A DNA stretch of 51,491 bases from Acutalibacteraceae bacterium. GTDB taxonomy: Bacteria; Bacillota; Clostridia; Oscillospirales; Acutalibacteraceae. Position numbers and translations under genes: made by a program. Positions 2,623-28,975 of the stretch are shown here, piece by piece (the stretch's first letter is position 1; each line of letters starts with the position of its first letter). Under the pieces are notes generated by a model. The model saw nothing but the letters and a program-made list of their open reading frames with translations. It made no database searches and was not told where the DNA came from. The stretch lies in the NCBI GenBank assembly GCA_045649855.1, contig JAZRQN010000013.1, positions 1 to 51,491 on the forward strand. The letters are read 5' to 3'.

Positions 2623-3876
2623 ATGGACGTGAATTATAAAAATCAAAAACGTTATACTACCGCGAAATATCCCATCCGCCAGCCGCTCTTTATCGTTGGG
2701 CTGATTTGGTTGTTATCCAAAATATGTTTAATCGGCAAAAAATATAAAATTGAAAAAATCAATATGGAAGGTCTTAAACCGCCGTATATGATGCTGAGTA
2801 ATCACATGTACTTCATCGACTTTGAATTGGCGGCAATGGCGACTTTCCCGCATCGCGTCAACAACGTGGTCAGCATCGACGGATACTATCGCCGCCCGTG
2901 GCTGATGGAGTTGATCGGTGCGATTTGTACGCGTAAATATACGCGCGATCTGCACTTGGTAAAATCCATTAACCGTGTGTTGAAACGCGGAGATATTCTG
3001 TCTATGTATCCTGAAGCACGGTATTCTCCGTGCGGTATTACGTCTTATATGCCCGATTCGATCGGTAAACTGATCAAGCATAACGGCGTGCCGGTGGTTA
3101 CGGTGGTGCATCACGGTAACTATCTGCATTCGCCGTTCTGGAACTTCCGCAAAAAACGGAAAGTGCCGCTGTATACCACTGTTACGCAGACGTTGACCGC
3201 AGAACAGATCAAAACGATGTCGGTGGACGAAATCAACGAGACGGTGCAGGCTGCGTTGCAGTATGACGATTATCGCTATCAGAAAGAAAACAATATTTTG
3301 ATTACCGAACCGTTCCGCGCGGAAGGCTTGCATAAGGTGCTGTACCAGTGTCCGCATTGTTTGACTGAATCCGAAATGGATTCTAAAGGTACGGAGATTT
3401 TCTGTAAAGCCTGCGGAAAACGTTGGAATTTGAACGAAGACGGCACCCTGTCCGCACTGGAAGGGGAGACTGAGTTTTCGCACGTTCCCGATTGGTTTAA
3501 ATGGGAACGTGAACAGGTGCGTTTGCAGATTGAAAATGGGGAATATTCTTTCTGCGATGATGTGGATGTGTATTCTTTGCCGCGTTGTTGGCGCTTTGAA
3601 CATCTGGGAAAAGCCAAACTGATGCACGATGCCAAAAACGGCTTTACTTTGAAGGGCGAATATAACGGTCAGCCGTATCAGATTCGCCGCTTGCCCCAAG
3701 AGAATAACAGTTTGCATATTGAATATGATTATTGTTATATCAAACCGTATGACTGCGTGGATATCTCGACCGAAAGAGACTCTTTCTATTGTTATCCGAC
3801 GCAGCAAAACGTTGTTACCAAACTGGCGTTTGCGACGGAATTGATATACTTGAACAGTTTGAGATCCAAGAAGTGA
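2623..3876 (+). CDS. Lysophospholipid/glycerol-phosphate acyltransferase-like protein with C-terminal Cys4 ribbon
   Basis: 417 aa. HX4D acyltransferase motif NHMYFID, YPEARYS block, and CPHC...CKAC zinc-ribbon-like motif in the C-terminal half. Confidence 0.6.
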   Translation: MDVNYKNQKRYTTAKYPIRQPLFIVGLIWLLSKICLIGKKYKIEKINMEGLKPPYMMLSNHMYFIDFELAAMATFPHRVNNVVSIDGYYRRPWLMELIGAICTRKYTRDLHLVKSINRVLKRGDILSMYPEARYSPCGITSYMPDSIGKLIKHNGVPVVTVVHHGNYLHSPFWNFRKKRKVPLYTTVTQTLTAEQIKTMSVDEINETVQAALQYDDYRYQKENNILITEPFRAEGLHKVLYQCPHCLTESEMDSKGTEIFCKACGKRWNLNEDGTLSALEGETEFSHVPDWFKWEREQVRLQIENGEYSFCDDVDVYSLPRCWRFEHLGKAKLMHDAKNGFTLKGEYNGQPYQIRRLPQENNSLHIEYDYCYIKPYDCVDISTERDSFYCYPTQQNVVTKLAFATELIYLNSLRSKK

Positions 3877-3886
3877 TTGGTGAAGT

Positions 3887-5134
3887 ATGAGGAAAAGAAC
3901 GGTTGAAATGTTGCGTGTGATACAACGATATGGCGCGACGTTTGCAAAGTGGCTCGTGTTGAGCGTGTTGCTTGGCGGCGTTTGCGGTGTTGTGGGTGCA
4001 GGGTTTGTGAAATGTGTTTCTATGGCAACACATTTGCGCGAACAGCACACGTGGCTGCTGTTTTGCTTGCCGATTTTCGGTGTGCTGTCGGTTGCGTTAT
4101 ATAAACTCTGTCGCGTGTCAGGCGTGGGAACGAGTGATGTGTTTGATACCGTTCGCACCGAACGAAAACTTTCATTTTGGTTAGCGCCTGCAGTCTTTGT
4201 CAGCTCTGTGTTGTCCCATTTGGGCGGTGCTTCTGTCGGAAAAGAGGGCGCGGCTTTGCAGTTGGGCGGCAGTCTGTCCTCTTTGATGAGCAGATGCTTT
4301 CATTTTTGTGAAAATACACGGCATATCCTGACGGTTTGCGGTATGGGCGCTTTGTTCTCGGCGGCGTTCGGTACGCCTATCGGCGCTTGTTTGTTTGCTT
4401 TGGAAGTCGTATATGTAGGCCGTGTGTTTATAGGATCGATTTTTCCATGTGTGCTGTCCTCGGTTACGGCATATATGGTATCGGTGGCACTGGGAACAGA
4501 TCCTGAACGTTTTCCGTTGCCTGCTATGTCCGCTGTTTCGGTATCGAGTTTGTGGCGTGTAGCTTTGATCGCAGTGGTCGGCGCATTTATCAGTATGCTG
4601 TTTTGCAATCTTTTGCATCTTGCCGAAGGTCGATTGAAACAATGGCTGCCAAATGATTATTTACGCGTGGCGATTGGCGGCCTTGCGATTGTTGGATTCA
4701 CCTTGCTTGTGCGCACGAATATTTATAACGGTGCAGGCGTGGATGTGATCTACGATGTTTTTGTGAACGGTACGGTACGCCACGAGGCGTTTGCGTTGAA
4801 AATTTTGTTTACCGTTTTGGCTGTTGCGGTTGGATTTAAAGGCGGAGAAATCGTGCCGACCTTTTTTATCGGCGCGACACTGGGTGCATCTGTGGCGGCA
4901 TTGATTGGTTTGGATCCTGCGTTCGGCGCGGCTGTGGGTATGGCAGCGCTGTTTTGCGGTGTTACCAACTGTCCGTTGGCAACTTTAGTGTTGTCTGTGG
5001 AACTGTTTGGCGGACAATGCCTGCCGTACATTGCGGTGGCTGTGGTGATTGCGTTTTTGCTGTCGGGTCATTACAGCTTGTATTCCACGCAGCGATTGTT
5101 GCACGAAAAGGTGGACATTTGTGTAGAAGAATGA
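3887..5134 (+). CDS. ClC-family anion channel/antiporter, short form without CBS domains
   Basis: 415 aa polytopic protein. It has the GKEGAALQLGG gating-Glu motif (canonical GREGP), GVGTS in place of GSGIP, and GGEIVPTFFIGATLG in place of GxFxP. Confidence 0.8.
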   Translation: MRKRTVEMLRVIQRYGATFAKWLVLSVLLGGVCGVVGAGFVKCVSMATHLREQHTWLLFCLPIFGVLSVALYKLCRVSGVGTSDVFDTVRTERKLSFWLAPAVFVSSVLSHLGGASVGKEGAALQLGGSLSSLMSRCFHFCENTRHILTVCGMGALFSAAFGTPIGACLFALEVVYVGRVFIGSIFPCVLSSVTAYMVSVALGTDPERFPLPAMSAVSVSSLWRVALIAVVGAFISMLFCNLLHLAEGRLKQWLPNDYLRVAIGGLAIVGFTLLVRTNIYNGAGVDVIYDVFVNGTVRHEAFALKILFTVLAVAVGFKGGEIVPTFFIGATLGASVAALIGLDPAFGAAVGMAALFCGVTNCPLATLVLSVELFGGQCLPYIAVAVVIAFLLSGHYSLYSTQRLLHEKVDICVEE

Positions 5135-5228: not shown

Positions 5229-7088
5229 ATGATGAACAGTAACTTTTCAACCATTATGAAAAGACTCAGCAAAACCGTCATGTTGATGCTTTTGGACGCA
5301 TCGGGCGTGGCGCTGGCGTTTTTTGCCGCTTTGTTGGTGCGGTTTGAATTGGATATCAGAGAGATCCCCGCGGCGTATATACAGGGGTATTTTGGCTTTA
5401 TTGGCTATTGGATCGCCGCTTCGCTGGTGGTTTTTGCGCTGTTCCGTTTGTACGCTACGTTGCTCAGCTATGCCGGGTTTGGTGATCTGGTACGTATAGG
5501 ATTGGCGCATATCGTGCTGATTCCCGGATTCTTGTTCGTGCTGGATATGCCGCGCTCGTTCTTTGTGATGGGGTGGCTGTTCAGTTTCGGTTTTGTTGTG
5601 ATGGTCCGTTTTGGTTGGAGGATGTTGCTCAGTATATCCAATTTCTTTCACAAACAGGCGCGCAACTCTCCCGAACATGATCGCGTGATGATTGTCGGTG
5701 GCGGTGCGGCAGGCCATATGCTGATTCGTGAATATGCGGCAAGCGACCGCTTGAAAGGCAAAATCGTTTGCGTGATCGATGACGATGCCAGCAAAAAGTG
5801 GTGTCGTTTGGAAAGTGTTCCGGTGGTGGGCAATCGTTATGATATTCCTGCTGCGGCACGGCGTTATAAAGTAAATAAAATCATCTTTGCGATTCCGAGC
5901 TGTAACGGTACGGCGCGTAAAGAGATTCTTGATTTATGTTCTCAAACGGGTTGCAAGGTGGAAAAGGTTCCCGGTTTGTATCAACTCGCCAACGGACAAG
6001 CTATTGGCAATCTGCACAAGGTAGAGCCCATCGACCTGTTGGGTCGTGATCCCGTCCAGGTGAATCTGGATGAGATCTACGGATATATTGCAGATAAAGT
6101 TGTGATGGTTACGGGTGGCGGCGGTTCGATCGGCAGCGAATTGTGCCGTCAGATCGCACGCAGTTCCCCGAAACTGCTCATTGTGTTTGATATTTATGAG
6201 AATAACGCGTATGACATCCAAATGGAGCTCAAACGTGATTATCCCACGCTGAATTTGCTGGTGCTCATCGGTTCGGTGCGCAATACCAAACGTTTGGATA
6301 CCGTGCTTGGTAAATATCGTCCGGATATCGTGTTCCATGCGGCGGCACATAAACACGTGCCGTTGATGGAAGACAGCCCTGCAGAAGCGATCAAGAATAA
6401 CGTGTTCGGCACGTATAAATTGGCAAAAGCCGCGGTCAAACACGGCGTGAAAAAGTTCGTGTTGATTTCTACTGATAAAGCGGTTAACCCGACCAATATT
6501 ATGGGCGCGTCCAAGCGTTTGTGCGAAATGGTCGTGCAGATGATGAACCGTGAAGCGACAAACACCGAGTTTGTGGCGGTGCGTTTTGGTAATGTGCTGG
6601 GCAGTAACGGCAGTGTGATTCCGTTGTTTGAAAAACAGATCGCCGAAGGCGGTCCCGTAACGGTAACCCATCCCGACATCATTCGGTATTTTATGACTAT
6701 TCCTGAAGCAGTATCGCTGGTATTGCAGGCAGGATACTATGCCAAAGGCGGCGAGATTTACGTGCTGGATATGGGTCAGCCCGTGAAAATTGCGGATATG
6801 GCGCGTAACCTGATTCGTTTTTCGGGTTATGAACCGGATGTGGATATTCAGATTGTGTACACGGGTCTGCGCCCGGGGGAAAAACTGTATGAAGAACTGC
6901 TGATGGCAGAAGAGGGCATGCAGGAAACCGAAAACAAACTGATCCACATCGGCAAACCGATCGAAATGGACGATGAACTGTTCAAACAGCAGTTGGAAAA
7001 ACTGGAAGCGGCGTATAAAGCCGAGGCAGATAATATCAAAGACGTCGTGGCGGAAATTGTACCTACATACAAACGCACCGATGGATAA
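5229..7088 (+). CDS. Membrane-bound nucleotide-sugar 4,6-dehydratase (CapD/PglF/WbpM family polysaccharide biosynthesis protein)
   Basis: Part of ORF 5181..7088. Four N-terminal TM helices, two Rossmann motifs (IVGGGAAGHML and VTGGGGSIGSELCRQ), and a GASKRLCE Y/K-type catalytic region. Start set at ATG 5229 after GGGGAAG. Confidence 0.85.
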   Translation: MMNSNFSTIMKRLSKTVMLMLLDASGVALAFFAALLVRFELDIREIPAAYIQGYFGFIGYWIAASLVVFALFRLYATLLSYAGFGDLVRIGLAHIVLIPGFLFVLDMPRSFFVMGWLFSFGFVVMVRFGWRMLLSISNFFHKQARNSPEHDRVMIVGGGAAGHMLIREYAASDRLKGKIVCVIDDDASKKWCRLESVPVVGNRYDIPAAARRYKVNKIIFAIPSCNGTARKEILDLCSQTGCKVEKVPGLYQLANGQAIGNLHKVEPIDLLGRDPVQVNLDEIYGYIADKVVMVTGGGGSIGSELCRQIARSSPKLLIVFDIYENNAYDIQMELKRDYPTLNLLVLIGSVRNTKRLDTVLGKYRPDIVFHAAAHKHVPLMEDSPAEAIKNNVFGTYKLAKAAVKHGVKKFVLISTDKAVNPTNIMGASKRLCEMVVQMMNREATNTEFVAVRFGNVLGSNGSVIPLFEKQIAEGGPVTVTHPDIIRYFMTIPEAVSLVLQAGYYAKGGEIYVLDMGQPVKIADMARNLIRFSGYEPDVDIQIVYTGLRPGEKLYEELLMAEEGMQETENKLIHIGKPIEMDDELFKQQLEKLEAAYKAEADNIKDVVAEIVPTYKRTDG

Positions 7089-23292: not shown

Positions 23293-24329
23293 ATGTAAAA
23301 GACTTCGGAATCGATCTGGGCACCGCTCGGGTGGTAATATACGCATCCGAGAAAGGCGTTGTGCTGGACGAACCGGCTGTGATGGCTGTGGATACCGAAA
23401 GCGGTAAAATGATCGCGTGCGGCGAAGAAGCATACGAAATGATAGGTCGTGCGCCTGATTCTATTACGGTGATCAGACCGCTTGCCAAAGGCGTGATTGC
23501 GGATTTTGATTACGCGTGTATGATGTTGCGCTATTTTGTGCAAAAAGTGTGTGCGTATAAAGTGATCAAACCGCGCGTGGCTGTCAGCGTCCCTGCGTCT
23601 GTTACCACAGTAGAGCAACGCTCGTTTGTGCAAGCTGTGTATGCGGCAGGTGCCAGACAGGTTATGTTGTTGGAAGAATCGATGGCGGCGGCTGTCGGCG
23701 CAGGATTGGACGTTGAAGCTCCCAGAGGCAGTATGGTAGTAGATATCGGTGCAGGTACGACCGACGTGGCGGTGATGTCCCTCAAAGGCTTGGCATCGTC
23801 TTGCTCGGAACGTATCGGTGGTGATGCTTTTGATGAAGCGATTATGCGATATGTACGGCAAAAACACCGTTTGGTGATTGGCGAGCGTACTGCTGCGGAC
23901 GTCAAAATTGCCGTTGGTAAGGCGATCGAGGAGGTTGAGGAGTTGTCGATAGAGGCACGTGGCAGGGATGCTGTAAGCGGTCTGCCGCGTGTACAAACGG
24001 TAACCTCGTCTGAAGTGCTGGAAGCGGTGAAAGAACCGCTGTCCCAGATTATCGAAACTGTTCAGCGCGTGTTGGAGAACACGCCTCCGGAGTTGTCCGC
24101 GGACATTTACGACAGCGGCATTATGCTGACGGGCGGTATGGCGCAGATGCGTGGTATGCCTACTTTGCTTTCTCGCGCGACGGGAATCCGTTGTTTTGTG
24201 GCGGACGAGCCTCGGTATTGCGTGGCGCGCGGCGCGGCGAATGCGCTTAAATATATCCATCTGTTGCATTCGGGTGTGTATGATATCGGCGATTTTTTAT
24301 ATCAAAATTCCGAAACGTTAACAAATTGA
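23289..24329 (+). CDS. mreB: Rod-shape-determining actin homologue MreB/Mbl
   Basis: 346 aa. FGIDLGTA, VVDIGAGTTDVAV and GIMLTGGMAQMRG. ATGA overlap with comF. Confidence 0.9.
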   Translation: MNVKDFGIDLGTARVVIYASEKGVVLDEPAVMAVDTESGKMIACGEEAYEMIGRAPDSITVIRPLAKGVIADFDYACMMLRYFVQKVCAYKVIKPRVAVSVPASVTTVEQRSFVQAVYAAGARQVMLLEESMAAAVGAGLDVEAPRGSMVVDIGAGTTDVAVMSLKGLASSCSERIGGDAFDEAIMRYVRQKHRLVIGERTAADVKIAVGKAIEEVEELSIEARGRDAVSGLPRVQTVTSSEVLEAVKEPLSQIIETVQRVLENTPPELSADIYDSGIMLTGGMAQMRGMPTLLSRATGIRCFVADEPRYCVARGAANALKYIHLLHSGVYDIGDFLYQNSETLTN

Positions 24330-24331
24330 AA

Positions 24332-24374
24332 CAATCCACTCAGCAGAGCATTCCGCTGAGTGGATTGCTTTTTT
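24332..24374 (+). terminator. Rho-independent terminator
   Basis: CAATCCACTCAGC-(10-nt loop)-GCTGAGTGGATTG followed by CTTTTTT. Confidence 0.85.
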
Positions 24375-24441
24375 GTTTGATGAAATTACCATGCTGAAAC
24401 CTTTCGTTTTGGTCAACAATAAAACGAAAAGAGGTGCAGAT

Positions 24442-25674
24442 ATGCGTAAAAGTATTCAGGCGATTACAGCGTTGATTGGTTTGTCGCTTTGCTTTATATG
24501 GAGTTTGATTATTTATTACGATTATAATATGCCAATGCAGTTCAGCGTTACGCAGGGAAAAGAATTGGTGTTGGACGGCATTGTACAGGTTTGCGATTTG
24601 GATGTGTTTTCTGCAAAACAGGTGGTGGCAGGATCGGAAAACACGGTGCAACGCGCATCTTTACGCGTGTTTGGTGTGTTTCCTGTGAAAGAGATCAGCG
24701 TAAAAACGGTGGAGCAGCCCGTTGTGGTGGTGGCAGGAACGCCGTTTGGTATCAAGATGTATACGGACGGTGTGCTGGTGGTTGGGCTTTCGGACGTGGA
24801 AACTGCATCCGGCCCGTGCAATCCTGCACGGATAGCTGGGTTGAAAATAGGGGACGTTGTGTTAGCAGTTAATGGTCAAGGTGTCAGCACAAATGCGGCT
24901 TTACGAGAAATGATCGAGCAATCAGCAGGCGAACAACTGGAATTGCGGATTCGACGGGACAATCTGATTTTTACGGTCAAGTTTCGCGCAGTGCTGTCCG
25001 CGACCGAGAAGCGGTATCGTTCCGGCTTTTGGGTGAGGGATAGTTCTGCAGGAATCGGTACGCTGACGTTCTACGATCCGCAGACACGTGTGTTTGGCGG
25101 TCTTGGGCATGCGGTTTGTGATGTTGACACCAATGAAAGATTACCGATTTCAACCGGAGAGATCGTAAGTGCGGAGATCTATGAAGTGGAAAAAGGAACT
25201 GCGGGCGCGGCAGGTAGTCTTGGCGGTGCGGTGAGTGATGAGTTGATTGGGATGCTTTCAATCAATGCAGAAACGGGAATATATGGTACGCTGACAAAAT
25301 TACCGCACAGCGGCTTTTTAACAATGCCGATAGCACTTAAGCAACAGGTGAAAGAAGGGTATGCACAGGTATATACGACCGTGGAAGGTACGCAACCGCA
25401 ATATTATGATATCAAAATTGAGCAAATTCGGTATCGGGACGCTTCTCCGACCAAGAATATGATTATCCGTATTACCGATCCGGATTTGTTACAACAAACG
25501 GGCGGTATCGTGCAGGGGATGAGCGGTTCACCCATCATCCAGGATGGTAAACTGGTCGGTGCAATTACCCATGTTTTGGTAAATGACCCGACAAAAGGGT
25601 ATGCAATCTTCGCAGAGAATATGCTCGAAACCGCTCAAAGTGTGGCAGATGAAAAATTAAAGGAAGCATCGTAA
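24442..25674 (+). CDS. spoIVB: Stage IV sporulation protein B, SpoIVB (S55 serine peptidase with PDZ domain)
   Basis: Part of ORF 24373..25674. Start set at ATG 24442 after AGAGGTG. Signal-anchor helix, PDZ (GLKIGDVVLAVNG), His region GGLGHAV and catalytic Ser GMSGSPII. Confidence 0.92.
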   Translation: MRKSIQAITALIGLSLCFIWSLIIYYDYNMPMQFSVTQGKELVLDGIVQVCDLDVFSAKQVVAGSENTVQRASLRVFGVFPVKEISVKTVEQPVVVVAGTPFGIKMYTDGVLVVGLSDVETASGPCNPARIAGLKIGDVVLAVNGQGVSTNAALREMIEQSAGEQLELRIRRDNLIFTVKFRAVLSATEKRYRSGFWVRDSSAGIGTLTFYDPQTRVFGGLGHAVCDVDTNERLPISTGEIVSAEIYEVEKGTAGAAGSLGGAVSDELIGMLSINAETGIYGTLTKLPHSGFLTMPIALKQQVKEGYAQVYTTVEGTQPQYYDIKIEQIRYRDASPTKNMIIRITDPDLLQQTGGIVQGMSGSPIIQDGKLVGAITHVLVNDPTKGYAIFAENMLETAQSVADEKLKEAS

Positions 25675-25685
25675 AATTAAATATT

Positions 25686-25714
25686 GTAGGGGACGATGCC
25701 CACATCGTCCCGAA
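25686..25714 (+). repeat. REP-like element copy 1 (GTAG + 9-bp hairpin)
   Basis: GTAG-GGGACGATG-CCCA-CATCGTCCC-GAA. The 29 nt are identical to the reverse complement of 26048-26076. Confidence 0.8.
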
Positions 25715-25716
25715 TA

Positions 25717-25750
25717 ACAAAAAACCAAGGGTTAATCACCTTGGGTTTTG
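25717..25750. terminator. Bidirectional terminator shared by spoIVB (+) and the RAYT-like gene (-)
   Basis: AAAAACCAAGG-GTTAATCA-CCTTGGGTTTT, with an A-run and a T-run on each side. The TAA stop of the minus-strand gene (25732-25734) lies in the loop. Confidence 0.6.
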
Positions 25751-26190
25751 TGTGTTAATATCCATTTTTTAGGGTTGTTTTCGATATATTCAAAAATTTC
25801 ATTGTAATCTTTTTGATTGCGAATTATATGGTCGTAATATGAGCGTTGAAAAATCGGGTTGCCTATTTCCTTTGTTGTTAATGTTTTAATTGAACGAACA
25901 ATATTTGAAATCCTGTTTGTAGGGGTCGATGCCCGCATCGACCCGTTTTCAATTTGCATAATCATATGTATATGGTCGGGCATTATGACATATTTTTTAA
26001 TTTCAGAAACATTACGGATATATTTTTCAACGATTGTTCCGTATTTTTTCGGGACGATGTGGGCATCGTCCCCTACGATATCACATAATATTCGTTTTCT
26101 ATCTTTAACACATATCGTAATAAAATATGCGCCCTTTTTTGAATAATCAAAATTTTCTAATCTATTATGTTTTCTATAGGGTAAATCCAT
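25732..26190 (-). CDS. REP-associated tyrosine transposase-like protein (RAYT / IS200-type Y1 HUH transposase homologue)
   Basis: Part of ORF 25732..26268. Start set at MDLPYRKHNRL (ATG 26190). HUH motif PDHIHMIM and catalytic-Tyr region FQRSYYDHIIRNQKDYNEIFEYIENNPKKW. Confidence 0.8.
   Translation of the reverse strand: MDLPYRKHNRLENFDYSKKGAYFITICVKDRKRILCDIVGDDAHIVPKKYGTIVEKYIRNVSEIKKYVIMPDHIHMIMQIENGSMRASTPTNRISNIVRSIKTLTTKEIGNPIFQRSYYDHIIRNQKDYNEIFEYIENNPKKWILTHKTQGD
25919..25944 (+). repeat. REP-like element copy 2, inside the RAYT-like CDS
   Basis: GTAG-GGGTCGATG-CCCG-CATCGACCC. Compared with copy 1 the stem carries a compensatory A>T / T>A pair. Translated antisense as GSMRASTPT. Confidence 0.8.
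26048..26076 (-). repeat. REP-like element copy 3, inside the RAYT-like CDS, inverted relative to copies 1 and 2
   Basis: Exact reverse complement of 25686-25714. Translated in the sense direction as VGDDAHIVP. Confidence 0.85.
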
Positions 26191-26206
26191 TTTTATCACC
26201 GAAAAT

Positions 26207-26234
26207 ATTATACCATAAATTAAAAATATTGCAA
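26207..26234 (-). promoter_or_regulatory. Putative sigma-A promoter of the RAYT-like gene
   Basis: On the minus strand: TTGCAA, 16-nt spacer, TATAAT, with a TGg extended -10. The -10 lies only about 17 nt from the ATG, so the leader would be very short. Confidence 0.4.
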
Positions 26235-26257
26235 TTCGTGAAAAACTGTGATAAACT
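26229..26257 (+). promoter_or_regulatory. Putative divergent sigma-A promoter sharing the palindromic -35 TTGCAA
   Basis: TTGCAA, 17-nt spacer, TAAACT, with a TGa extended -10. The predicted start near 26264 coincides with the first base of the long inverted repeat. Confidence 0.4.
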
Positions 26258-26263
26258 AATAGT

Positions 26264-26485
26264 GCCAAACTAACTGAATATTGTGTGAAATTGGGTGTAT
26301 TTTCTTTTTATGGGATAATTACGCTTTTTTTGCGTATCCTATGAATCGTTATGAATTTGATAAAAATGCAAATTCCAACGATTTGTAGGTGGGTACGCCC
26401 CATTTCACACTCGGTTAGTTTGGCGACTATCGGAGTTTGCGTTTTTTGTGCGGTTACTTCGGTAGCCGCACTTTTTTATTTTTAG
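26264..26485 (+). ncRNA. Candidate structured RNA or cis-regulatory leader (unclassified)
   Basis: Closing stem 26264-26274/26414-26424 (11 bp) plus 26283-26291/26402-26410 (9 bp). Two internal hairpins (about 26312-26339 and 26344-26383). Terminator GTGCGGTTAC-TTCG-GTAGCCGCAC followed by TTTTTT at 26448-26477. No known family recognised. Confidence 0.25.
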
Positions 26486-26520
26486 GAACAAAAAGTATTT
26501 AATTGAAGTGAGGTGATTCG

Positions 26521-26877
26521 GTGGAAACAATTTTATCAATTATCGCGTTAGTTATTTCTTTGATTTCGGGTGGTTTTACTTTTTATACTTTTTGGTGGAC
26601 AAATCGACGAGATAGAAGACAAGCAACTCTTGAAGCATATAACCGATTACAAACCGAAGTTTTTGACAACCTTAATTCTTACACTCCTACTGAAATACGG
26701 GATATTTGTACCGATGTAAAATCACCCGAATATAAAACCATCAGTGGCTATGTTGCGAGAATAGAACATTTTTGTGAACACAGGGGACGGTTCTCTGTGT
26801 TAAAACCCGCAACACCCGCCCTGAATTTCAGGGTGGGTGTTTCTCTAATATGTAGAAACTTGTTGGTCCTATATTGA
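26521..26877 (+). pseudogene. Hypothetical ORF, probably a 5' gene fragment
   Basis: GTG start after GAGGTG. An N-terminal TM helix and about 85 plausible residues. From about 26775 onward the reading frame runs through two hairpin/terminator-like sequences (26781-26803 and 26811-26843) and gives low-complexity text. Confidence 0.35.
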
Positions 26878-26885
26878 CATACTCG

Positions 26886-27040
26886 TGAGCGGTTCACCCA
26901 TCATCCAGGATAGTAAACTGGTTGGCGCTGTTACGCATGTTCTGGTCAATGATCCGACCAAAGGGTACGCTATATTCGCAGAGAATATGTACGAGACAGC
27001 GCAAAGTGTAACAGGAGAAAACTTGAAAGTAGCATCATAA
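26886..27040 (+). pseudogene. Orphan 3' fragment of spoIVB (last 51 codons incl. stop)
   Basis: Collinear with 25520-25674 without indels. Encodes (V)[50 protein letters not shown]. No start or SD, and an in-frame stop lies at 26846-26848. Confidence 0.85.
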
Positions 27041-27042
27041 AC

Positions 27043-27071
27043 AAAAGCATCCCGATGACGGGATGCTTTTT
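27043..27071 (+). terminator. Rho-independent terminator directly after the orphan spoIVB end
   Basis: AAAAGCATCCCG-ATGA-CGGGATGCTTTTT. Confidence 0.85.
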
Positions 27072-27135
27072 CCTTGTAATTTATTGTGAGAAGTGTTACA
27101 CTGACAATAACATAATGCAGTATACGAGGTACGGT

Positions 27136-28005
27136 ATGAAAGTTTTATCATTCGGAGAGATTTTGTGGGACGTCTATCCCGATAAAAAATGCTTGGGCGG
27201 TGCATCGCTCAACTTTGGCGCGCATCTTGCAAAACATGGTGAAGACGTGTATATGTTGTCTGCTTTGGGACGAGATTCGCTCGGCGAAGAAGCTGTTATG
27301 CAGTTGAAAGCGTGGGGGATGAAAGATACTTACGTTACAATTTTGGATGCTAAAGAGACCGGGAAATGTTTGGTAACGCTGGATGAACAGTCGATTCCGT
27401 CCTATAATTTGCTGTCGGATGTGGCGTATGATTATATCTGCTGCGATACCGTGTCGGATGTGTTTGATGTGTTGTATTTCGGCACGTTGGCACTGCGGAG
27501 TGCGTATAATTACAACTCGCTGAATGCTTTTCTCGCTTCTCATCAGTTTGAGAATGTTTTTGTGGATGTCAATATCAGAGCGCCGTTTTACTCCGCGGAA
27601 ACGGTAACTTTTGCGGCGAATCACGCTACCATTATAAAAGTGAGTCTGGAAGAGTTGCCTGTTGTTTGTGATCTACTGAACATTGATCGGACGGTAGATT
27701 ATCAAGCGTTTGCCGAAATGCTCGCGGATCGGTTTGCCGGTTTGAAACTGGTGATCATCACGTTGGGCAAAGACGGCGCGTATGCGTATTCCTGCACGGC
27801 TGAAAAAGGTTATTTTGGCGCATCGCAGAAGGTGGAAGTGGTATCCACGGTCGGCGCAGGCGATAGCTTTTCTGCGGCGTTTTTGCACAAATATATGCAA
27901 GGGAAAGATATACAATCTTGTTTGGAATACGCCAACAAAGTGGCATGCAAGGTGGTATCCGAAATGGATGCGGTTCCCGAATATGCCCTTGAGGAGTTTA
28001 TTTAA
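27136..28005 (+). CDS. PfkB-family carbohydrate kinase (fructokinase-like)
   Basis: Part of ORF 27055..28005. Start set at ATG 27136 after GAGGT. FGEILWDVYP...GGASLNFGAH N-terminus and C-terminal STVGAGDSFSAAF. Confidence 0.85.
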   Translation: MKVLSFGEILWDVYPDKKCLGGASLNFGAHLAKHGEDVYMLSALGRDSLGEEAVMQLKAWGMKDTYVTILDAKETGKCLVTLDEQSIPSYNLLSDVAYDYICCDTVSDVFDVLYFGTLALRSAYNYNSLNAFLASHQFENVFVDVNIRAPFYSAETVTFAANHATIIKVSLEELPVVCDLLNIDRTVDYQAFAEMLADRFAGLKLVIITLGKDGAYAYSCTAEKGYFGASQKVEVVSTVGAGDSFSAAFLHKYMQGKDIQSCLEYANKVACKVVSEMDAVPEYALEEFI

Positions 28006-28136
28006 TATACAATATACAGTAAAAGTCTTCCAATCGTAATCGGGGTGCTTTTGTCATCTTTGCTGATATTTTCACTGTCTTTTTCTGTCCTTGAATAGCC
28101 GAAAAATAAATTTTTTAAAAATCTTTTGGTAAACTA

Positions 28137-28165
28137 TTGCAATAATTGGTAAATTATGGTAATAT
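28137..28165 (+). promoter_or_regulatory. Putative sigma-A promoter of spo0A
   Basis: TTGCAA, 17-nt spacer, TAATAT, with a TGg extended -10. TGACAAA, one mismatch from the TGNCGAA 0A box, overlaps its 3' edge (28165-28171). Confidence 0.4.
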
Positions 28166-28201
28166 GACAAAGCCGGCAAATTTAACAAGGAGATTCTGAT
28201 A

Positions 28202-28975
28202 ATGGAGAAGCAAGTGAAAGTGTTGTTAGTGGACAACAGCGAGCATTTTGGCGTTCCGTGTGCAAAGATTATGCGCGAAAACGGTGTAGAAGTGGAGGTC
28301 ATTGAAAAGGACGGTAAAAAAGCGGTGGATGTGATATGCAGTATGCACCCGGACGTGGTGATGCTGGATTTCTTTTTGCCGCGTTTGGATGCGATTGGTG
28401 TGATCAAAAACACGTATGCCAAATCGTTGGCAAATATGCCGCAGTTTATGGTGATGTCGGGGTTTGACAACCCGAATTTAGAACGCGAAGCGATTTTGGG
28501 CGGTGCGGATTACTTTATCTTGAAACCGTTTGATGCCGCGGAAATGGCGCATCGGATTCGCACGTTGTGCAGTAAGGTGATTCGCGCAGATATGAAAAAC
28601 GAGCGCGCGGTGGCGGAAAATAACAGTCTGGAAATCCGTGTAACCGAGATCATTCATCAGATCGGCGTACCTGCACATATCAAAGGATATCAATATCTGC
28701 GCGATGCGATTTTGATGGCGATTGACGATGATGATATCATTAACGCAGTAACCAAACGGCTGTATCCTGCAGTTGCGAAAAAGCACGGTACTACCTCGTC
28801 AAGAGTGGAACGCGCTATCCGCCACGCGATTGAAGTTGCGTGGGACAGGGGAGACGTGGACGTTCTCAATTCCTATTTCGGATATACCATCCATACAGGG
28901 CGTGGCAAACCGACCAACAGCGAATTTATTGCGATGATTGCGGATAAATTCCGCTTACAACTGAAAATTTCGTAA
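28202..28975 (+). CDS. spo0A: Sporulation master regulator Spo0A
   Basis: Receiver domain (VLLVDN...[16 protein letters not shown]...YFILKPF) plus the Spo0A-specific C-terminal domain ([52 protein letters not shown]). Confidence 0.95.

Follow-up and report, generated by a model that had tools for sequence, protein, structure and literature searches.

In staphylococci, SCCmec and other SCC elements insert into the 3′ end of rlmH (orfX) by means of Ccr large serine recombinases, and the gene is not destroyed; composite arrays and ccr-less pseudo-SCC elements accumulate at this site, bounded by repeated attachment sequences. For e14, the integrase is a tyrosine integrase of the lambdoid kind, with a shared core. 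CIMEs were defined for the tyrosine-integrase ICEs of streptococci. In the case of skin/sigK, SPbeta/spsM and gin/gerE, mother-cell genes are split, and excision in the terminally differentiated mother cell is needed. The forespore is the compartment in which Bacillus subtilis expresses spoIVB, and the forespore chromosome is the germ line. As described in PMC13626634 (which cites Hill et al. 1989), the icd gene of Escherichia coli stays intact on insertion of e14 or phage 21, which carry an alternative 3′ end; the displaced end is the icdC pseudogene, and the two ends differ in mostly conservative ways (PMC13626634).

The locus described here lies in a window of 51,491 nt, which is the whole stretch of DNA that was analysed. 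As at icd, the insertion is in the 3′ part of a gene of essential function: the host 5′ part and an apparently element-borne 3′ end form the live spoIVB, and the old end is orphaned at the far junction, followed by the host flank. Different from e14, the spoIVB elements are linked to large serine recombinases (LSRs) and share only a dinucleotide by necessity, and their site is a multi-occupancy hotspot where tandem units occur alongside many recombinase-less cassettes. With SCC, no more than the last few codons of the target are restored, whereas the spoIVB elements supply ~50 codons including the catalytic Ser; the LSRs linked to spoIVB are only distantly Ccr-like (NCBIfam CcrB/CcrC scores of 70–75 bits, compared to cutoffs of 900). 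Like a CIME, the window insert lacks genes for recombination and transfer yet has kept its attL- and attR-type junctions, internal deletion is evident, and the site also contains tandem units. The serine-recombinase elements already known from sporulation genes split mother-cell genes; in contrast, spoIVB is not split (24442–25674 is a complete, consensus-like ORF) and receives a replacement end, as expected for a forespore gene. Replacement without excision is presumably necessary because spoIVB is expressed from the germ-line chromosome of the forespore, as in B. subtilis; a forespore gene is not repairable by developmental excision, and the spoIVB family appears to solve the problem by replacement. 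The initial annotation likened the layout to islands in tRNA or tmRNA genes. The replacement of a gene end holds, but e14/icd and SCCmec/rlmH are closer precedents, and no tRNA or tmRNA gene was found near the insertion site. Related kinds are known from these two cases, and a literature search on spoIVB with serine recombinase, integration site, prophage or attB found no relevant paper and no description of spoIVB as the target of such end-replacing elements.

We estimate a probability of about 0.85 that 25520–26885 is the scar of a site-specific integrative element, from a spoIVB-targeting family in Acutalibacteraceae and Oscillospiraceae. The target would be the spoIVB sequence coding for GGIVQG-M-SGSP; large serine recombinases would recombine it at the TG within the Met codon that immediately precedes the catalytic-Ser codon. 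On its left, the element would bring its own copy of the last ~50 spoIVB codons, and on its right a 25-nt recombinase half-site, TGTTGGTCCTATATTGACACACTCG. The predicted product order is the host body with the live element-borne end, cargo, half-site, the orphaned host end with its terminator and the host downstream genes, and spoIVB would be functional without excision. The window copy has decayed and contains no recombinase; it retains both junctions, a RAYT/REP passenger and the structured left-end module of the family, while its DUF4760 cargo gene is reduced to the first 85 codons and at least two further genes have been lost. The features are as follows.

24442–25519, plus strand: probable host-encoded 5′ part of spoIVB, residues 1–359 and the first base of the Met360 codon (Pfam Peptidase_S55, PDZ)
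Final ~25 nt of 24442–25519, plus strand: putative B arm of the attachment site, GGCGGTATCGTGCAGGGGA
25520–25521, plus strand: left copy of the putative crossover dinucleotide TG, in the ATG of Met360, directly before the catalytic-Ser codon
25522–25674, plus strand: live, probable replacement end (copy A), residues 361–410 and stop, including the catalytic Ser of GMSGSP
25686–25711, plus strand: REP-like hairpin 1, starting 12 nt past the live stop codon
25725–25744: bidirectional terminator after REP-like hairpin 1
25732–26190, minus strand: RAYT-like Y1/HUH transposase gene (Pfam Y1_Tnp, E = 7e-6; NCBIfam REP_Tyr_transpos, E = 3e-21)
25919–25944 and 26051–26076: two REP-like hairpins inside the RAYT coding sequence
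26229–26257, plus strand: putative promoter read from the sequence, TTGCAA, 17 nt, TAAACT, and a TG ahead of the second hexamer
26264–26476, plus strand: conserved structured module, with a long hairpin (26264–26424), a small hairpin and a terminator (26448–26476)
26521–26877, plus strand: truncated DUF4760 gene (ORF118), 94% identity over 72% of the query
26861–26885, plus strand: right-end motif TGTTGGTCCTATATTGACATACTCG (equal to TGTTGGTCCTATATTGACACACTCG), proposed P arm of attR, 25 nt, directly before the orphan TG
26886–26887, plus strand: right copy of the putative crossover dinucleotide TG
26888–27040, plus strand: probable displaced orphan end (copy B), untranslated
27043–27070, plus strand: intrinsic terminator of the displaced end, with a perfect 12-bp stem and a T run after it

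The ORF at 24442–25674 encodes SpoIVB in full (Peptidase_S55, E = 4.9e-82, and a PDZ domain), and an mreB-like gene is located upstream, the same position as in L003, L004, L005 and L054. Copy A is consensus-like at every conserved position, and the live chimeric SpoIVB is probably active. From a few nucleotides past the stop, copy A runs on into DNA to which the left end of the L042 element is homologous; copy A would be element-borne, though conversion by copy B may have altered part of it. The indel-free recurrence of the last 51 codons, pointed out before, was borne out: 25520–25674 and 26886–27040 form a gapless alignment with an offset of 1,366 bp and 128 of 155 nt identical, including the initial 26 nt.

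Orphan spoIVB ends are present in 14 of 80 related (species-level) spoIVB loci and in ~20 metagenome contigs. In the 14 loci all are on the same strand, and the homology of all orphans starts at the same TG, that of the Met codon preceding the catalytic Ser. The 25-nt motif precedes each of them. Among 32 distinct attR junctions, all 32 break at TG and conservation stops exactly 25 nt upstream; the chance expectation of the motif in the window is 0.01. The 26-nt identity in the window is not a required core; the identical runs are 2 to 34 nt long in other loci, and the crossover would map to the TG dinucleotide. Inspection by eye of the 25-nt arm against the beginnings of the ends showed no convincing dyad symmetry. 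The occurrence of one junction and one 25-nt element end in many species upholds the earlier claim of element integration in the spoIVB 3′ end with a substitute end, and the family provides a well-documented natural case of a mobile element made harmless by bringing a spare end of its target gene.

L081 and L082, on two contigs, share a single element: 6,586 nt are 100% identical up to the TG, after which the spoIVB end is mismatched at 23 of 71 nt. Three tandem LSR genes (Resolvase + Recombinase + Zn_ribbon_recom) are situated ~90 nt upstream of the motif in this element, and L102 has an independent LSR trio (52–60% identical) in the same position relative to the motif. L093 contains a complete 7.6-kb unit, with a single LSR gene after the live end and the motif and orphan at the far side. 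The integrase of the related elements thus appears to be one or three large serine recombinases. For the window we infer that the insertion was itself catalysed by an LSR with TG as the crossover, and that the cassette derives from an LSR-bearing ancestor. In larger related elements, LSR genes adjoin the motif or the replacement end. As none of ~15 short inserts examined contains an LSR, their LSR-driven mobility rests on the shared ends. The conserved 25-nt arm and the target sequence are now defined for an LSR family of gut Clostridia, whose members are candidate genome-engineering tools.

The ancestral layout (spoIVB, 115–330 bp, spo0A) is found at 29 loci on 28 distinct contigs. The supplied end, carrying the catalytic Ser of the protease that triggers the sigma-K sporulation checkpoint, is placed directly upstream of spo0A. 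In L001, L019, L026 and L029 the orphan precedes spo0A; in L054 it precedes pfkB, and the window has the same order. Because the orphans keep the downstream host flank, they are probably the displaced older ends, and the live ends would have arrived with the elements. L038 (empty) and L026 (occupied) have spoIVB bodies that are 88% identical, and the empty site consists of the spoIVB body, an end of the orphan type and the flank found after the L026 orphan. The empty-site layout that had been predicted is seen in this pair of relatives, but no same-species empty site was present in the collections searched; these collections held no same-species genome, the best SpoIVB relative is 74% identical, and an exact-protein look-up of the window SpoIVB gave no match.

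The L026 live end is a mosaic. Its first 114 nt are 95.6% identical to the L038 end, after which it switches to element sequence shared with L019; the distal end and the module of the L019 and L026 live ends are near-identical, though the hosts are only 68% identical. Since the L026 live end is host-like over its first ~115 nt, homologous exchange has acted, and the left boundary of the element DNA appears to be blurred by exchange inside the repeated end, either homologous or by gene conversion. Homologous exchange may also be the arrival route in some lineages. For the window, it would mean that the LSR event took place in another lineage and that the integrated, recombinase-less cassette was acquired after transformation, transduction or conjugation, with the left crossover in spoIVB or its end and the right one in the orphan or the downstream flank. 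This differs from site-specific insertion only in how the window copy arrived, and we regard it as possible but rather unlikely. It would account for the mosaic live ends, for the lack of an LSR gene in all of the short inserts, and for the 26-nt identical start of copies A and B, which are mutually nearest among ~100 ends (84%, compared to no more than 79% to any other). However, the spoIVB bodies of hosts that share cassette ends are only 62–70% identical, a low value for RecA-mediated exchange; every right junction falls precisely at TG beside an intact 25-nt arm; and the mosaics are accounted for equally well by gene conversion between the two direct repeats once the element has integrated. 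Site-specific insertion is the preferred route for the window copy.

Copies A and B differ at 27 nt, 19 of them at third codon positions; 25 codons differ, 18 synonymously and 7 nonsynonymously. By the Nei-Gojobori method, dS is 0.94 and dN is 0.077, giving a dN/dS of 0.08, and omega = 1 was rejected for this pair (P = 2e-7). An omega of 0.55, expected with one copy neutral and the other constrained, was likewise rejected (P = 2e-4). A pattern of purifying selection between live and orphan ends is also present in 13 of 15 other orphan/live pairs, the exceptions being L027 and L024. The synonymous third-position excess noticed by the initial annotation was therefore kept after proper codon analysis. 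Its further claim, that the two ends come from different lineages, is weakened by their mutual nearness, which fits a closely related donor or partial conversion; the tree-like comparison that placed both ends was uninformative about the donor.

The substitution pattern also bears on a local duplication, tandem or segmental, of the 3′ end of spoIVB, with unrelated DNA later inserted between the copies and the distal one decaying. The two window ends being closest relatives, and an unusual G-to-S change in copy B at an invariant position, would suit such a history. However, at a dS of ~0.9 the dN/dS rejects a copy that was neutral throughout the divergence, dozens of unrelated contexts show this junction with the conserved 25-nt foreign motif abutting it, one identical element is found joined to two distinct ends (L081/L082), and from the L038/L026 comparison the motif is not native flanking sequence at the empty site. 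Local duplication is very improbable and, on these sequence comparisons, effectively refuted, in agreement with the earlier statement that the repeat is not a decaying local duplication.

The DNA between the copies has a GC content of 0.36, compared to 0.45–0.55 in the flanks, and the Y1/HUH homologue, REP-like hairpins and gene fragment reported in it were all found. The RAYT ORF scores 75.8 bits with REP_Tyr_transpos (cutoff 80) and 26.5 bits with Y1_Tnp (cutoff 23). Only three copies of the REP-like hairpin exist in the 51-kb window, all within or beside the RAYT gene, and no cognate hairpins are dispersed elsewhere in it. In other loci, REP-like hairpins are found inside spoIVB ends. A RAYT block of the same layout is present in L042, but no orphan lies within 6 kb, and with the unrelated cargo of other loci the block appears to be a passenger of its element lineage and not the agent. 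That the Y1/HUH transposase inserted the block and made the duplication is scarcely credible: the RAYT-like gene and three hairpins in the block (one 12 nt after the live stop) and the hairpins within other spoIVB ends would fit, but Y1 transposition (IS200/IS605 family) is known to make no target duplication, 13 of 14 other orphan-bearing loci checked lack a RAYT and carry unrelated cargo, the L042 block has no orphan within 6 kb, and the conserved right end differs from a REP.

Next to the RAYT gene, a plus-strand promoter probably lies at 26229–26257; it is conserved in alignment A1 and scores 8/12, under the scan threshold. Its TTGCAA hexamer is common to the divergent RAYT promoter, which was found by the scan on the minus strand. 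The structured module is 86–88% identical (blastn) to sequence just past the live spoIVB stop in L004, L019, L026, L032, L035 and L022, and ~82% identical in L071. Owing to its stability (MFE −89.9 kcal/mol, z = −10.6) and compensatory changes in 11 pairs, it is RNA-like, and it appears to be the conserved left-end module of one spoIVB-inserted cassette family. An Rfam scan of 24000–28500 gave sub-threshold hits only and matched no family; BLAST of the module against phage and plasmid collections gave a 55-nt terminator-like match or none, and an exact 25-mer of it was absent from the viral contigs searched. A small toxin ORF within the module was considered and rejected, as the reading frames differ among loci in alignment A1.

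The DUF4760 fragment corresponds to the first ~85 codons of a ~150-aa protein. Its homology ends at ~26775, which probably marks an internal deletion breakpoint. The intact cassette in L105 carries DUF4760, ORF166 and ORF440, the last two of which are missing from the window; PADLOC recognised no known defence system in this cargo. Searching the 51-kb window by tblastn with LSR queries gave no homologue, so the remark that no integrase is left is correct for the window, and the 1,366-bp insert is probably a deletion derivative without recombinase.

Tandem units at the spoIVB site are found in L047, L028, L093, L082, L098, L100 and L104, and the site can be flagged as an accessory-gene hotspot in poorly known gut spore-formers. 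A more speculative reading, which we hold to be doubtful, is that the spoIVB–spo0A junction of Acutalibacteraceae is an integron-like capture platform served in trans by LSRs, with the window insert as one cassette, possibly still mobilizable. Recombinase-less cassettes would have a spare spoIVB catalytic end on the left, often with a conserved promoter and a structured-RNA leader, and the 25-nt half-site on the right; LSRs on larger elements would excise and insert them, piling up cargo operons of one orientation between two genes that are key to sporulation, and the active-site-bearing SpoIVB end would be swapped repeatedly. The likeness to integrons goes no further than the stacking of recombinase-less cassettes in one orientation at a single site: a tyrosine recombinase was not found, and the cassette boundaries are spoIVB ends and the LSR half-site.

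Downstream of the insert, the order is copy B, terminator, pfkB and spo0A. Since pfkB is cassette cargo in L085/L086 and lies within a cassette in L096, copy B may be the end of an earlier cassette and not the primordial host end; a degenerate motif or spoIVB end between pfkB and spo0A was looked for, and none was found. At one position where 80 of 80 live ends have Gly, copy B has Ser. The clean terminator reported after the orphan is present at 27043–27070. The orphan was also said to have no start or Shine-Dalgarno (SD) sequence and an in-frame stop upstream. No SD is present and an in-frame TAA lies 13 codons upstream (26846–26848), but a GTG is formed at the junction (26885), from which the ORF finder called a 51-aa ORF. 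Short spoIVB-like ORFs 3′ of spoIVB should accordingly be annotated with caution, as they are probably displaced ends.

In the window, spoIVB is complete at 24442–25674 (Peptidase_S55, E = 4.9e-82, plus a PDZ domain). Its last 51 codons (live end A, 25520–25674) recur at 26886–27040 as orphan B. With a probability of about 0.85, the DNA between the two copies is the scar of an integrative element of the large serine recombinase (LSR) family, which targeted the active-site Met-Ser codons of SpoIVB and brought a replacement end with it. The initial annotation was confirmed in every factual element. As it described, the ~1.2 kb between the copies is AT-rich (GC 0.36, vs 0.45–0.55 outside) and contains a Y1 transposase homologue, REP-like hairpins and a gene fragment; orphan B has no Shine-Dalgarno sequence, is preceded by an in-frame TAA 13 codons upstream and is followed by a clean terminator (27043–27070) with a perfect 12-bp stem. 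The features are listed below; TG is the dinucleotide within the Met codon (ATG) before the catalytic Ser codon of GMSGSP, and RAYT denotes a REP-associated transposase.

Features of the insert in the window
25520–25521: TG, left copy
25522–25674: live end A
25686–25711: REP-like hairpin just outside the RAYT gene, with a bidirectional terminator next
25732–26190, minus strand: RAYT-like Y1 transposase gene with two REP-like hairpins inside the coding sequence
26229–26257, plus strand: promoter-like site before the structured module
26264–26476, plus strand: structured module, ~213 nt
26521–26877: truncated DUF4760 gene
between the DUF4760 fragment and the 25-nt arm in the listed order: subterminal region with an extra hairpin
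26861–26885: 25-nt arm
after the 25-nt arm: TG, orphan B and terminator, in that order

The DUF4760 fragment corresponds to the first ~85 codons; its relatives are ~150 aa in length. On the 3.2-kb contig L105 the cargo is intact, and the order is spoIVB end, REPs, divergent HTH gene, leader with terminator, DUF4760, ORF166, ORF440, motif (the 25-nt arm) and orphan start. Compared to L105, the window has lost ORF166 and ORF440, the two genes after DUF4760, along with the 3' portion of DUF4760 itself. No LSR homologue was found within the 51-kb window, in agreement with the earlier remark that no integrase is left. The window insert, a deletion derivative without a recombinase, retains both junction types.

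The window's species was absent from the collections searched, and the best SpoIVB relatives (74% identical) came from Acutalibacteraceae MAGs. Extra copies of the last ~50 spoIVB codons are present in 14 of 80 species-level loci, with one to three copies each, located 0.5–5 kb downstream and all on the same strand. At the protein level, all extra ends begin at the Met of GMSGSP; the nucleotide homology of the orphans always starts at the TG of its ATG codon, and every orphan is preceded by the foreign sequence TGTTGGTCCTATATTGACACACTCG. Scanning viral and metagenome contigs for the motif added 24 contigs, nearly all with a spoIVB end after it. The 32 distinct junctions are almost completely conserved over exactly 25 nt upstream of TG and not at all beyond; on the spoIVB side, synonymous sites change freely, the catalytic Ser codon (AGC vs TCN) among them. 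TG is thus placed as the probable crossover. In the window, the motif occupies 26861–26885, where the chance expectation is 0.01. The 26-nt identity between A and B was rejected as a required core, because in other loci the identical runs are anywhere between 2 and 34 nt long.

In 29 loci (28 distinct contigs), spo0A lies 115–330 bp after spoIVB. In L001, L019, L026 and L029, it is the orphan, not the live spoIVB, that stands 250–580 bp upstream of spo0A; in L054 pfkB follows the orphan, matching the window. The empty-site comparison proposed in the initial annotation was run in a neighbouring lineage, using the empty locus L038 and the occupied locus L026, whose spoIVB bodies are 88% identical. 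The end and downstream flank of L038 carry on into the orphan and flank of L026, and the live end of L026 departs from L038 near codon 38 and enters element DNA. This element DNA (distal end, hairpin, promoter and structured module) is almost identical in L019, and the spoIVB bodies of L019 and L026 are only 68% identical. Taken together, these comparisons indicated that the orphans are displaced resident ends and that the elements carry along the live ends, or at least the distal parts of those ends, which supports the earlier proposal of an element inside the spoIVB 3' end that brings a substitute. In the window, a PfkB-family kinase gene (pfkB, 27136–28005) lies between orphan B and spo0A. 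Elsewhere pfkB is cassette cargo directly before the motif (L085/L086) or lies inside a cassette, with an end on one side and the structured module on the other (L096); therefore, the window pfkB may have been left behind by an earlier cassette, and orphan B would then be the end of that cassette and not the primordial host end. No further motif or end was found between pfkB and spo0A. Empty sites occur mostly in more distant relatives, and the nearer relatives of the window seem almost always occupied. In about 22 of the 80 loci (for example L025, L032, L033, L045, L049, L052, L055 and L056), spo0A and orphans are both missing from the 2–6 kb downstream of spoIVB; these loci probably hold larger insertions.

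Three independent types of element show linkage of LSR genes to the element ends. Viral contigs L081 and L082 carry a tandem run of three genes (557, 567 and 538 aa), each identified as an LSR by its Resolvase, Recombinase and Zn_ribbon_recom domains, and the motif follows this run after ~90 nt. The two contigs carry the same element, 6,586 nt being identical up to TG and followed by 23 mismatches in 71 nt of spoIVB end, which is the expected product of site-specific insertion beside two different resident ends. L102 contains an independent LSR trio, 52–60% identical and positioned in the same way; upstream of it are a RecD2-like helicase, DUF3854, an actin-like segregation protein, an HTH protein and a small sigma factor, genes that point to an integrative plasmid-like or conjugative element rather than a phage. 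One contig, L093, contains a complete unit of 7.6 kb, in which the spoIVB body and live end are followed, ~100 nt past the stop, by a single LSR gene (576 aa); a two-component system, further cargo, the motif, an orphan end and the start of another LSR-led unit come next. Judging from sequence, catalysis would be by the LSR, and the chimeric SpoIVB protease is presumably active. A forespore-expressed gene could not be rescued by developmental excision, so a replacement end would have to be supplied. This rationale rests partly on the expression of spoIVB in the forespore of B. subtilis. Its other basis is the reliance of known intervening elements on the mother cell (PMC5595907). The middle LSR of the L082 trio (3169–4872) has a DUF4368 domain, which a large LSR survey associated with multi-targeting, transposon-like LSRs (PMC10083194); this may bear on the excision or insertion mode of these elements.

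The right boundary is always sharp, whereas the left one is blurred: in L026, the live end is host-like over its proximal ~115 nt. Other end pairs cover the whole span between near homogenisation (L035) and saturated divergence (L072, L069 and L028). Gene conversion or homologous exchange must therefore act between the direct repeats, and excision by homologous crossover would hand the element a hybrid end from its previous host. The closeness of A and B and their identical 26-nt start fit such exchange; they are mutual nearest neighbours among ~100 ends (84% vs at most 79%). The window copy may have arrived through LSR action in this genome or, rather less probably, through homologous import of an already integrated cassette.

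Tandem arrays of up to four spoIVB ends, with units of 0.8–3.5 kb between the ends, were observed in L047 (orphans at 5560, 6490 and 7572), L028, L082, L093, L098, L100 and L104, a sign that insertion or accretion has happened at this one site more than once. The cargo is diverse (lipoproteins, large surface proteins, a two-component system, DUF4760 operons), and PADLOC recognised nothing in it. It is nearly always co-directional with spoIVB (L019, L026, L027, L029, L035, L072, L093, L105 and others), and a divergent HTH or AraC regulator is often located at the left end of the insert. On a less likely reading, the region between spoIVB and spo0A would be an integron-like platform whose cassettes are serviced in trans. 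With their conserved ends, common orientation and lack of a recombinase, the cassettes are similar to CIMEs; they also have a superficial likeness to integron cassettes, but show no integron feature. SCC elements, which are LSR-driven and include tandem arrays and recombinase-less pseudo-elements, follow the same logic at the rlmH 3' end; different from SCC, the spoIVB elements replace ~50 codons, including the catalytic residue. Prophage e14, which sits in icd and has the icdC pseudogene beside it, is a parallel in its logic (PMC13626634). The recombinase class of e14 is different. Unlike with skin, SPbeta and gin, the gene is not split. A full-text literature search found no paper linking spoIVB to serine recombinases or integration, and spoIVB is absent from the main text of the large LSR survey. 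The spoIVB case is clean and widespread, with a notable target; the principle is already established, and the window copy is a remnant.

The claims of a 51-codon repeat without indels and of a synonymous third-position bias both held on codon alignment. A and B are identical at 128 of 155 nt, without interruption over the initial 26 nt; 19 of the 27 differences fall at third codon positions, and the codon differences are 18 synonymous and 7 nonsynonymous. The Nei-Gojobori estimates are dS 0.94 and dN 0.077 (dN/dS 0.08). Neutrality is rejected (P = 2e-7), and so is a dN/dS of ~0.55 (P = 2e-4), the expectation with one copy drifting neutrally throughout. Local duplication of the spoIVB end is effectively excluded. 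Orphan B has Ser at a position that is Gly in 80 of 80 live ends (G369S), a first sign of decay.

L042 (1508–2160) repeats the RAYT/REP-hairpin layout, and it has the end, REP, RAYT and first module part in common with the window (77% over 877 nt); the RAYT block is thus an old passenger of this element lineage. A RAYT-mediated event as the source of the insert is, like local duplication, effectively excluded. The structured module consists of a long hairpin, a small hairpin and a terminator (MFE −89.9 kcal/mol, z = −10.6), with compensatory changes in 11 pairs. It is 86–88% identical to the insert left ends of L004, L019, L026, L032, L035 and L022, and ~82% to that of L071, these being spoIVB-inserted cassettes of seven other species. 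It matched no Rfam family and contains no conserved ORF; lying directly 5' of cargo genes, it may serve as a terminating leader or be a stable sRNA. The RAYT-like coding sequence houses two copies of its own REP-like hairpin in opposite orientations (25919–25944 and 26051–26076), and no copies beyond these and the outer one were found in the 51-kb window. REP-like hairpin sequences also occur in frame within the variable C-terminal stretch of SpoIVB ends, in the live ends of L005, L006, L051, L054 and L042 and the orphans of L054 and L072, where they translate as ..GQGLAPA.. or ..G[DE]G.STS[HR]LK...
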